From a virus (lineage: Duplodnaviria; Heunggongvirae; Uroviricota; Caudoviricetes), in IMG/VR virus record IMGVR_UViG_2645727905_000011: a stretch of 9,608 bases of DNA, one strand, 5' to 3'. A model generated the notes under the pieces. That model was not told the DNA's origin and ran no database searches. It worked only from the letters and a program-made list of their open reading frames with translations. A program made the translations under genes and the position numbers. This document shows positions 1,169 through 1,619 of the stretch, one piece after another (positions within the stretch are counted from its first letter, which is position 1; each line of letters begins with the position of its first letter).

Positions 1169-1431
1169 GACTTAATCTTCCCCTCCTTCAGCAGTATCGC
1201 CTGCGTCCTCATCACGCCTTCGAGGTGGTAAAGTCTGGCGTCTTTGTTGTCGAGAATCCGGGTGCGTCGGTCGATCTCCGCGTGGCAGTCACTACAAGCC
1301 CATGCGCCGATCAGGTCGTCAGGCTTCATTCCCGTTCCGCAAATTCCAGCCAGCCTGGGCAAACGAAATTCGCCTGATGTGTGTGCAGGATGGTCGTACT
1401 CACAAACAAATCTGCGAGATGTACAGCCGCG
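1165..1431 (-). pseudogene. ybcO: DUF1364 (YbcO-like) gene, 5'-disrupted; only a TTG start at 1362
   Basis: C-terminal 65 aa (ICGTGMKPDDLIGAWACSDCHAEIDRR...LKEGKIKS) match the YbcO family. The frame stays open and protein-like (RGCTSRRFVCEYDHPAH...) from the TTG up to an in-frame TGA at 1432-1434, with no ATG/GTG and no SD. ATGA overlap with rusA start. Confidence 0.55.
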
Positions 1432-1434
1432 TCA

Positions 1435-1619
1435 GCCGCGATCCGTTCTGGTGCCGTAACGTGCTCAGCCCGTCGAAGTTGCGGGAAAAATGGGATGAGC
1501 TTTCCCTGCGCTTATCACCGTCCGTCAGCACGTACACCGAAAAACGCGAAGACCCGTACTTCAAATCCAGTTACGACAACGTGGACTACAGCCAGATCCC
1601 GGCAGGATTCAGGGGGTGA
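1435..1619 (+). pseudogene. C-terminal fragment of a DnaT-domain replication (primosomal-like) protein
   Basis: Translation ends ...DNVDYSQIPAGFRG, strikingly like the E. coli DnaT C-terminus (...SQIPPGFRG as I recall). Upstream part of the frame (1302-1434) runs antisense through the ybcO-like homology, so the N-terminus is absent. Stop overlaps the next gene start (GTGA). Confidence 0.5.

Follow-up and report, generated by a model that had tools for sequence, protein, structure and literature searches.

Two 5′-truncated genes from different phage lineages diverge from a single point (positions 1351/1352) in a decayed lambdoid prophage of Escherichia coli. We regard this point, junction 1, as very probably the left end of a non-homologous, microhomology-level illegitimate replacement in that defective prophage. 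An earlier note on this DNA had already described two genes truncated head to head, and that description holds. The stretch analysed (the window; 9,608 bp) differs from the genome of E. coli Z1323HEC0067 (NZ_CP148378.1, 2,962,714–2,972,321, minus strand) at positions 1624 (A/G) and 6130 (C/T) and nowhere else, and is 99.9% identical to the sister strain Z1323HEC0423; it thus stems from a third assembly, very closely related, of that lineage. In the RefSeq annotation, the gene order across the window is Q, ninH, rusA, a 'nuclease domain' pseudogene, a 'YdfO' pseudogene, yfdN, dam, a lexA-like gene, a second rusA, a dnaB′ pseudogene, a ′rep pseudogene, kil, a rad52-like gene and an HNH endonuclease gene, with ssb, further genes, xis and int towards the right end.

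Position and parentage of junction 1

A local BLAST map assigns window 1–1355 to HK97-type sequence (genes on the minus strand), 1351–3417 to SfII-type sequence (plus), 3402–3882 to the end of the rep gene and the start of the dnaB gene of a lambdoid relative (minus), and 3879 onward to kil and the rest of the early-left operon (plus). Three-way alignments, made with HK97 and SfIV and again with the closest relatives (HZ41 and the prophage of O103:H2 12009), place junction 1 at 1351–1352. Identity to the left parent (HZ41/HK97) extends through 1352 and identity to the right parent (O103 prophage/SfIV) begins at 1351, leaving a 2-nt overlap (CA) common to both. HZ41 is 97% identical to window 1–1355 and 99% identical over the 206 nt adjoining the junction; the O103:H2 12009 prophage is 98.5% identical to the right side. 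When a 501-nt query across the junction is searched, its positions 1–206 (window 1150–1355) match HK97, HK022, HK620, mEpX and HZ41, and its positions 202–501 (window 1351–1650) match SfII, SfIV, mEp460, SKA5 and thousands of E. coli prophages, the left and right matches stopping within 5 nt of one another (BLAST piece ends at 1355 and 1351). The two sides thus match different phages, which bears out the proposal that the breakpoint joins two phage modules. Over stretches of hundreds to thousands of bases, each side has 96–99.7% DNA identity to phage genes that are intact, so the pattern is not a product of chance. Base composition changes at the same place: AT skew switches sign at 1351/1352, and the coding-strand skews reverse at about 1350, 3400 and 3880.

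The earlier note had put the breakpoint at about 1432, with a YbcO remnant running up to a TGA at 1432–1434 and a DnaT-type tail starting only at about 1435. That in-frame stop is indeed present, and no stop interrupts the minus-strand frame between 1431 and 1168, but window 1351–1431 matches the O-like gene in SfIV, SfII and the O103 prophage at 97–99.7% identity, is unlike the gp66 gene of HK97 or HZ41, and encodes the very residues (the first 25 of the frame) that the Pfam YbcO match omits. These 25 codons of the YbcO frame (1357–1431) belong to the O-like coding sequence, read antisense; the TGA at 1432 is the first stop in the antisense frame of the O-like gene, and the whole interval first singled out, 1363–1480, is plain O-like coding sequence (about codons 229–268). 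A break at 1432 has practically no chance of being correct; the true junction lies 80 nt to the left, 11 nt outside that interval.

A gp66/YbcO remnant in an HK97-type nin–Q region

To the left of the junction the window is collinear with HK97 at 95.9% identity (1–1355). All the genes here are on the minus strand: the Q antiterminator gene at the left flank (1–624, PGAP), ninH (621–809, PGAP; collinear with HK97 ninH), an intact gene for a RusA Holliday-junction resolvase of the HK97 gp67 type (806–1168, from annotation and the HK97 match), and the remnant of gp66/YbcO (PF07102, formerly DUF1364; 1165–1352), delimited by three-way alignments, Pfam and PGAP. The remnant consists of codons 36–96 and the stop, so that 61 of 96 codons are kept and the N-terminal 35 codons are gone together with the start codon. 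Junction 1 falls inside the Met35 codon of gp66, whose ATG now reads CTG.

The Pfam YbcO profile scores 78 bits against the remnant (gathering cut-off 29.9), with residues 26–84 of the 88-codon frame matching profile positions 33–91 of 92. The domain is incomplete, its N-terminal third with the Cys residues (HK97 gp66 residues 1–35) being missing. Full-length gp66 has 96 aa in HK97, HK022 and Gally. Of the 273 YbcO homologues in phage records, which range from Escherichia to Vibrio and Pseudomonas, 252 are complete and begin some 35 residues before the point where the remnant sets in. In the remnant frame the earliest codon able to serve as a start is a TTG at 1362, within the foreign DNA, and the homologues show that YbcO proteins do not begin at its equivalent. 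The remnant therefore stands without a start codon of its own or its native upstream context, the DNA homology stopping at 1352, and PGAP calls it a pseudogene ('incomplete, missing N-terminus'). The frame had been described as lacking any ATG or GTG; this is right for the part upstream of the homology, where there is none, and wrong for the homologous part itself, which has an internal ATG at 1329–1327.

Gene order in the window (Q–ninH–rusA–gp66) is that of the HK97/HK022 nin region (gp66 'HNH endonuclease', gp67 RusA, NinH, Q) and of ybcO–rusA in the K-12 prophage DLP12. In the window, by contrast, gp66 is cut at codon 35 and the genes upstream of it (roi, ninF, ninE and others) have been replaced. 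The short family phrog_7109 (62 positions) covers exactly residues 35–96 of gp66, and so begins at the same internal Met35. As nearly all phage homologues are full length, we take the agreement between this start and the junction to be probably a coincidence of annotation.

The C-terminus of an O-like initiator on the right

To the right, window 1353–1619 (plus strand) encodes the C-terminus of an O-like replication initiator of the SfIV gp41/K-12 YfdO type: 88 codons and a stop, equivalent to residues 226–313 of 313, as identified by alignments, PHROG and PGAP. The match to PHROG 391 ('replication initiation O-like', E = 5.9e-42) covers profile positions 214–298 of 298, and DNA identity to full-length genes is 97–99.7%. 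The fragment is hence longer than the tail from about 1435 that had been proposed, with 88 aa encoded by 1353–1616. Nor is there a conserved stand-alone gene for a DnaT-like protein of 80 aa, the O-like gene having 313 aa in intact phages (SfIV/SfII). Beginning as it does at residue 226, the fragment has lost the N-terminal winged-helix domain for origin DNA binding (HTH_36, gp41 residues 23–70). PGAP annotates it as a pseudogene missing its N-terminus and uses the name of the K-12 protein; the full-length phage protein goes under the names 'primosomal protein' and 'O protein family' as well.

The plus-strand frame that ends in SQIPAGFRG at 1619 does run antisense through the YbcO homology, as had been noticed. 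It forms a chimeric ORF of 105 codons (1302–1619), in which 17 codons antisense to the YbcO remnant are fused in frame to the O-like fragment, and is most likely accidental. A consensus-match scan of 1000–2200 found no promoter-like sigma-70 site. Because pR, pL and the immunity region were deleted at junction 3 (see below) and no promoter-like site lies near junction 1, both remnants are most likely silent, judging from the DNA.

The right-hand gene had been labelled a DnaT-domain protein, a reading that the profile searches do not bear out. Pfam DnaT (PF17948) gives no match at E ≤ 10 to either the 88-aa fragment or the C-terminal 156 aa of SfIV gp41, and none at E ≤ 0.01 in full-length SfIV gp41. 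No DnaT match was returned by NCBIfam, and phmmer against the PDB gave no DnaT match and no similar solved structure. The BLASTP comparison was made with a sequence taken to be that of E. coli DnaT (primosomal protein I); as a control, it matches PF17948 at 3.7e-21. Its similarity to the fragment is confined to the last nine residues (SQIPAGFRG versus SQIPPGFRG, 8/9), so that the two proteins end almost identically and the rest of the domain is unlike. The C-terminal domain of DnaT matches phrog_1408, phrog_2509 and phrog_1032, which are other phage initiator families, and not phrog_391. The 'DnaT domain' label thus appears to derive from a nine-residue tail and to be unsupported at the sequence level. 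The tail itself (window 1590–1619) may act as a peptide that docks with a replication protein of the host.

The SfII-type block and junctions 2 and 3

The O-like fragment opens a block (1351–3417; 2,066 bp) that is collinear with a dozen phages at 97–98% identity and contains the O-like initiator from codon 226, yfdN/PerC, dam, a LexA-like gene and a truncated rusA, all on the plus strand. The gene for the PerC-family regulator YfdN (1616–2110) is full length (164 aa; PHROG 1324, E = 4e-78). Annotation and phage comparison likewise identify a full-length dam gene for a phage N6-adenine methyltransferase (2110–2763) and a full-length gene for a LexA-like DNA-binding-domain protein of 108 aa (2760–3086). 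The second rusA, of SfII type (3083–3439), is truncated: its homology stops at 3417, at about codon 112 of 129, and its last codons are antisense dnaB. Pfam RusA matches it over profile positions 1–110 of 124, compared with 1–123 in SfII. RefSeq lists this gene as intact (WP_024224716.1, 118 aa), yet by these comparisons it is a truncated chimera.

Junction 2 spans 16 nt (3402–3417), over which the SfII-type parent and the dnaB-antisense parent agree at 13 of 16 positions. Beyond it, on the minus strand, lie an N-terminal remnant of a dnaB-like replicative helicase gene (3418–3541; from annotation and a match to positions 7711–7850 of a lambdoid relative) and a C-terminal remnant of the resident prophage's own replication-initiator gene (3538–3882; from annotation and BLAST). 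At junction 3 (3879–3882), the C-terminal part of rep adjoins kil directly as the result of a collinear deletion of about 4.3 kb. The N-terminus of rep, cII, cro, cI and the N region, as far as kil, were lost in this deletion, so that the immunity and early-promoter region (pR, pL) is gone from the prophage.

The order of genes in the block (O-like, yfdN, dam, lexA-like, rusA) is that of the replication–nin module of SfII, SfIV, mEp460 and SKA5. In those phages the module is whole, whereas the window holds only an internal piece of 2,066 bp with both end genes truncated, in an orientation opposite to that of the host prophage's early-right operon. The yfdO–yfdN–yfdM region of K-12 prophage CPS-53 (KpLE1) belongs to the same module, with 97% identity to window 1351–2376, and has also decayed, having a truncated initiator and a truncated methylase. 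The breakpoints are independent, the initiator DNA of CPS-53 starting from about codon 78 and that of the window from codon 226. The CPS-53 module, moreover, lies in its native prophage at argW, in contrast to the inverted 2-kb fragment inside another prophage seen here.

Locus and distribution of the arrangement

RefSeq annotation describes a badly decayed lambdoid prophage with an ibs toxin gene on one side and mdtA on the other. Outside the window, its left end carries the effector genes espJ and nleG, tail-fibre genes and a holin′/′tail-tip fusion. This fusion, in which PGAP joins a holin fragment to a fragment of a tail-tip protein about 2 kb left of the window, is another large internal deletion, which cost this prophage its lysis and head genes and most of its tail genes.

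The whole arrangement is present in 2 of 5,426 complete E. coli genomes (Z1323HEC0067 and Z1323HEC0423), which were independently assembled and are unlike in size and coordinates. A metagenome contig of 19.8 kb has the same structure, with 99.975% identity over window 498–4480 (3,983 bp). A 26-mer spanning junction 1 (CAAATTCCAGCCAGCCTGGGCAAACG) has no exact match in the GTDB representative genomes or IMG/VR, which marks the junction as a private scar of one lineage; its one metagenome match is on a contig with the same arrangement. Within the 5,426 complete genomes, junctions 1, 2 and 3 occur in company and never singly, and no intermediate or ancestral state was found. At this chromosomal site, where an unrearranged ancestor was looked for, 77 genomes have an integrase adjoining mdtA. 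The closest of these at the site, RM14723 and Z1323HEC0355, were rejected as the ancestral state: the prophage that they carry has decayed in another way and has a lambda-type nin region as well as an IS3 element. Relatives that share window 3879–9608 are located at torS, and their replication and nin modules are different ones.

Other features of the window concern its right half. The integrase gene (8535–9608) has mdtA as its neighbour; prophages with 95–98% identical int/xis are at torS, the divergence beginning about 73 bp past the int stop codon. The HNH endonuclease gene (4998–5465), flanked by the rad52-like recombinase gene and ssb, is missing in an otherwise collinear relative from strain 382634_2f and found in strain A25, a pattern that fits a mobile, homing-type insertion. 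No Rfam family matched in the window.

Origin of the join

The rep–dnaB′ piece on the right and the ′gp66–rusA–ninH–Q piece on the left represent opposite ends of a single, normal early-right operon, the middle of which was very probably replaced by the foreign fragment. The resident order, on the minus strand, would have been rep, dnaB, nin genes, gp66 (ybcO), rusA, ninH and Q. The stretch from about codon 42 of dnaB to codon 35 of gp66 would have been lost (~3.7 kb if HK97-like), and its substitute would have been a 2,066-bp fragment of SfII/SfIV/CPS-53 type, running from codon 226 of the O-like gene to about codon 112 of rusA and inserted in the opposite orientation. The partners would have been the resident prophage, presumably no longer selected to function, and SfII-type phage DNA. 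The joins would have been made by end joining or template switching, at 2 nt for junction 1 and at an imperfect 13/16 patch for junction 2, and by neither homologous nor site-specific recombination, with two 5′-truncated pseudogenes diverging from 1351/1352 as the outcome. To our knowledge E. coli has no classical NHEJ; the joining pathway may have been alternative end joining or replicative template switching.

The DNA switches abruptly between two unrelated parents at a single point, and both parents are intact elsewhere. A repeat search found no terminal inverted or direct repeats at the ends of the block; the single notable inverted pair, the N-termini of the two rusA genes (36 nt, 75% complementary), lies away from the junctions. 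No IS elements are annotated in the window and no recombinase sites occur at the block ends. The minimal pairing segments of Red-beta and RecA are 23–34 bp (PMC3945230), and overlaps of 2 nt and 13/16 fall far below this, which disfavours homologous recombination and favours the illegitimate recombination that had been suggested from the outset.

An inversion-type breakpoint had been offered alongside. In its simple form, as an inversion of 1352–3417 within a single phage genome or its flipping by a site-specific invertase, it accounts for block genes on the strand opposite to both flanks, and the geometry fits, with two 5′-truncated genes diverging at one end and two 3′-truncated genes converging at the other. 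Flipping the block back, however, restores no gene: the N-terminus of dnaB would be followed by the O-like C-terminus, and the N-terminal part of rusA by the C-terminal part of gp66, which are unrelated families. The block and its flanks also come from different phage lineages and the ends have no inverted repeats, so that a simple inversion is extremely unlikely. Inversions between prophages are well known in E. coli, and two of them in succession, with different end points, could swap and invert a segment between co-resident prophages. Such a reciprocal exchange would leave just this kind of inverted foreign block. It also predicts a mirror junction, joining the gp66 N-terminus to the N-terminal part of the O-like gene. 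Yet a chimeric 398-nt query for it, with a threshold of at least 80% coverage, found this reciprocal junction in 0 of 5,426 genomes, both carriers included. In Z1323HEC0067 no donor copy of the O-like/yfdN DNA was detected elsewhere, the 501-nt junction query having one place and no second among the matches listed. We therefore consider such an exchange very improbable.

That the remnants are functional and under selection, as an O-like C-terminal protein of 80–105 aa, a YbcO C-terminal protein of 62–65 aa or both, might be argued from the open frames, from short PHROG families that fit these parts (phrog_2357, 124 positions; phrog_7109, 62 positions) and from the 122-aa YfdO annotated in K-12. 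The ATG of the 62-aa version has been destroyed, however, the K-12 yfdO is itself a remnant whose DNA homology goes on upstream of the annotated ORF, the consensus scan found no promoter-like site, the join is limited to one lineage and PGAP calls both genes pseudogenes. The short PHROG families and YfdO show that such remnants are often annotated as genes and are no proof of function; selection on the remnants is accordingly very improbable, and the scar presumably has no function. Repeated prophage sequence is a classic source of misassembly, but the same structure in two complete genomes and a 19.8-kb metagenome contig leaves an assembly or chimera artefact a minute chance.

Illegitimate replacement at junction 1 is thus the reading that we retain, and a further question is whether all three junctions arose together. 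They lie within 2.5 kb, a cluster that includes a 465-bp rep/dnaB island and the inverted foreign block, and they always occur together, with no intermediates in 5,426 genomes. On these grounds it is conceivable, if rather doubtful, that junctions 1–3 are a single complex event, formed by serial template switching (MMBIR-like) or one-shot break repair. Such an event may have taken place while the resident prophage and an SfII-type phage were replicating together, as opposed to stepwise decay, and would, if true, be a natural bacterial example of a multi-junction 'one-hit' rearrangement.

Discussion

Joints in viable phages are usually found at gene or domain boundaries, with gene order kept. 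Unlike these, the joint in the window cuts two genes and adjoins an inverted block, as is to be expected where selection for phage function has ceased. With the mosaic joints that illegitimate recombination is held to produce in lambdoid phages (the Hendrix-type model) it shares the same abrupt switch of lineage with essentially no homology; that model is debated against relaxed homologous recombination (PMC3945230, PMC2327257).

Junction 1 is a routine scar of prophage decay, and both of its genes are already pseudogenes in RefSeq. It yields no new mechanism or gene family and has little import beyond housekeeping, where it corrects the breakpoint by 80 nt, the 'DnaT domain' label and the RefSeq RusA at 3083–3439. 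As a clean, unselected phage–phage join with a 2-nt overlap it is nonetheless a data point: the illegitimate-recombination model of lambdoid mosaicism takes joins of this kind as its starting material, and they are seldom seen in viable phages.
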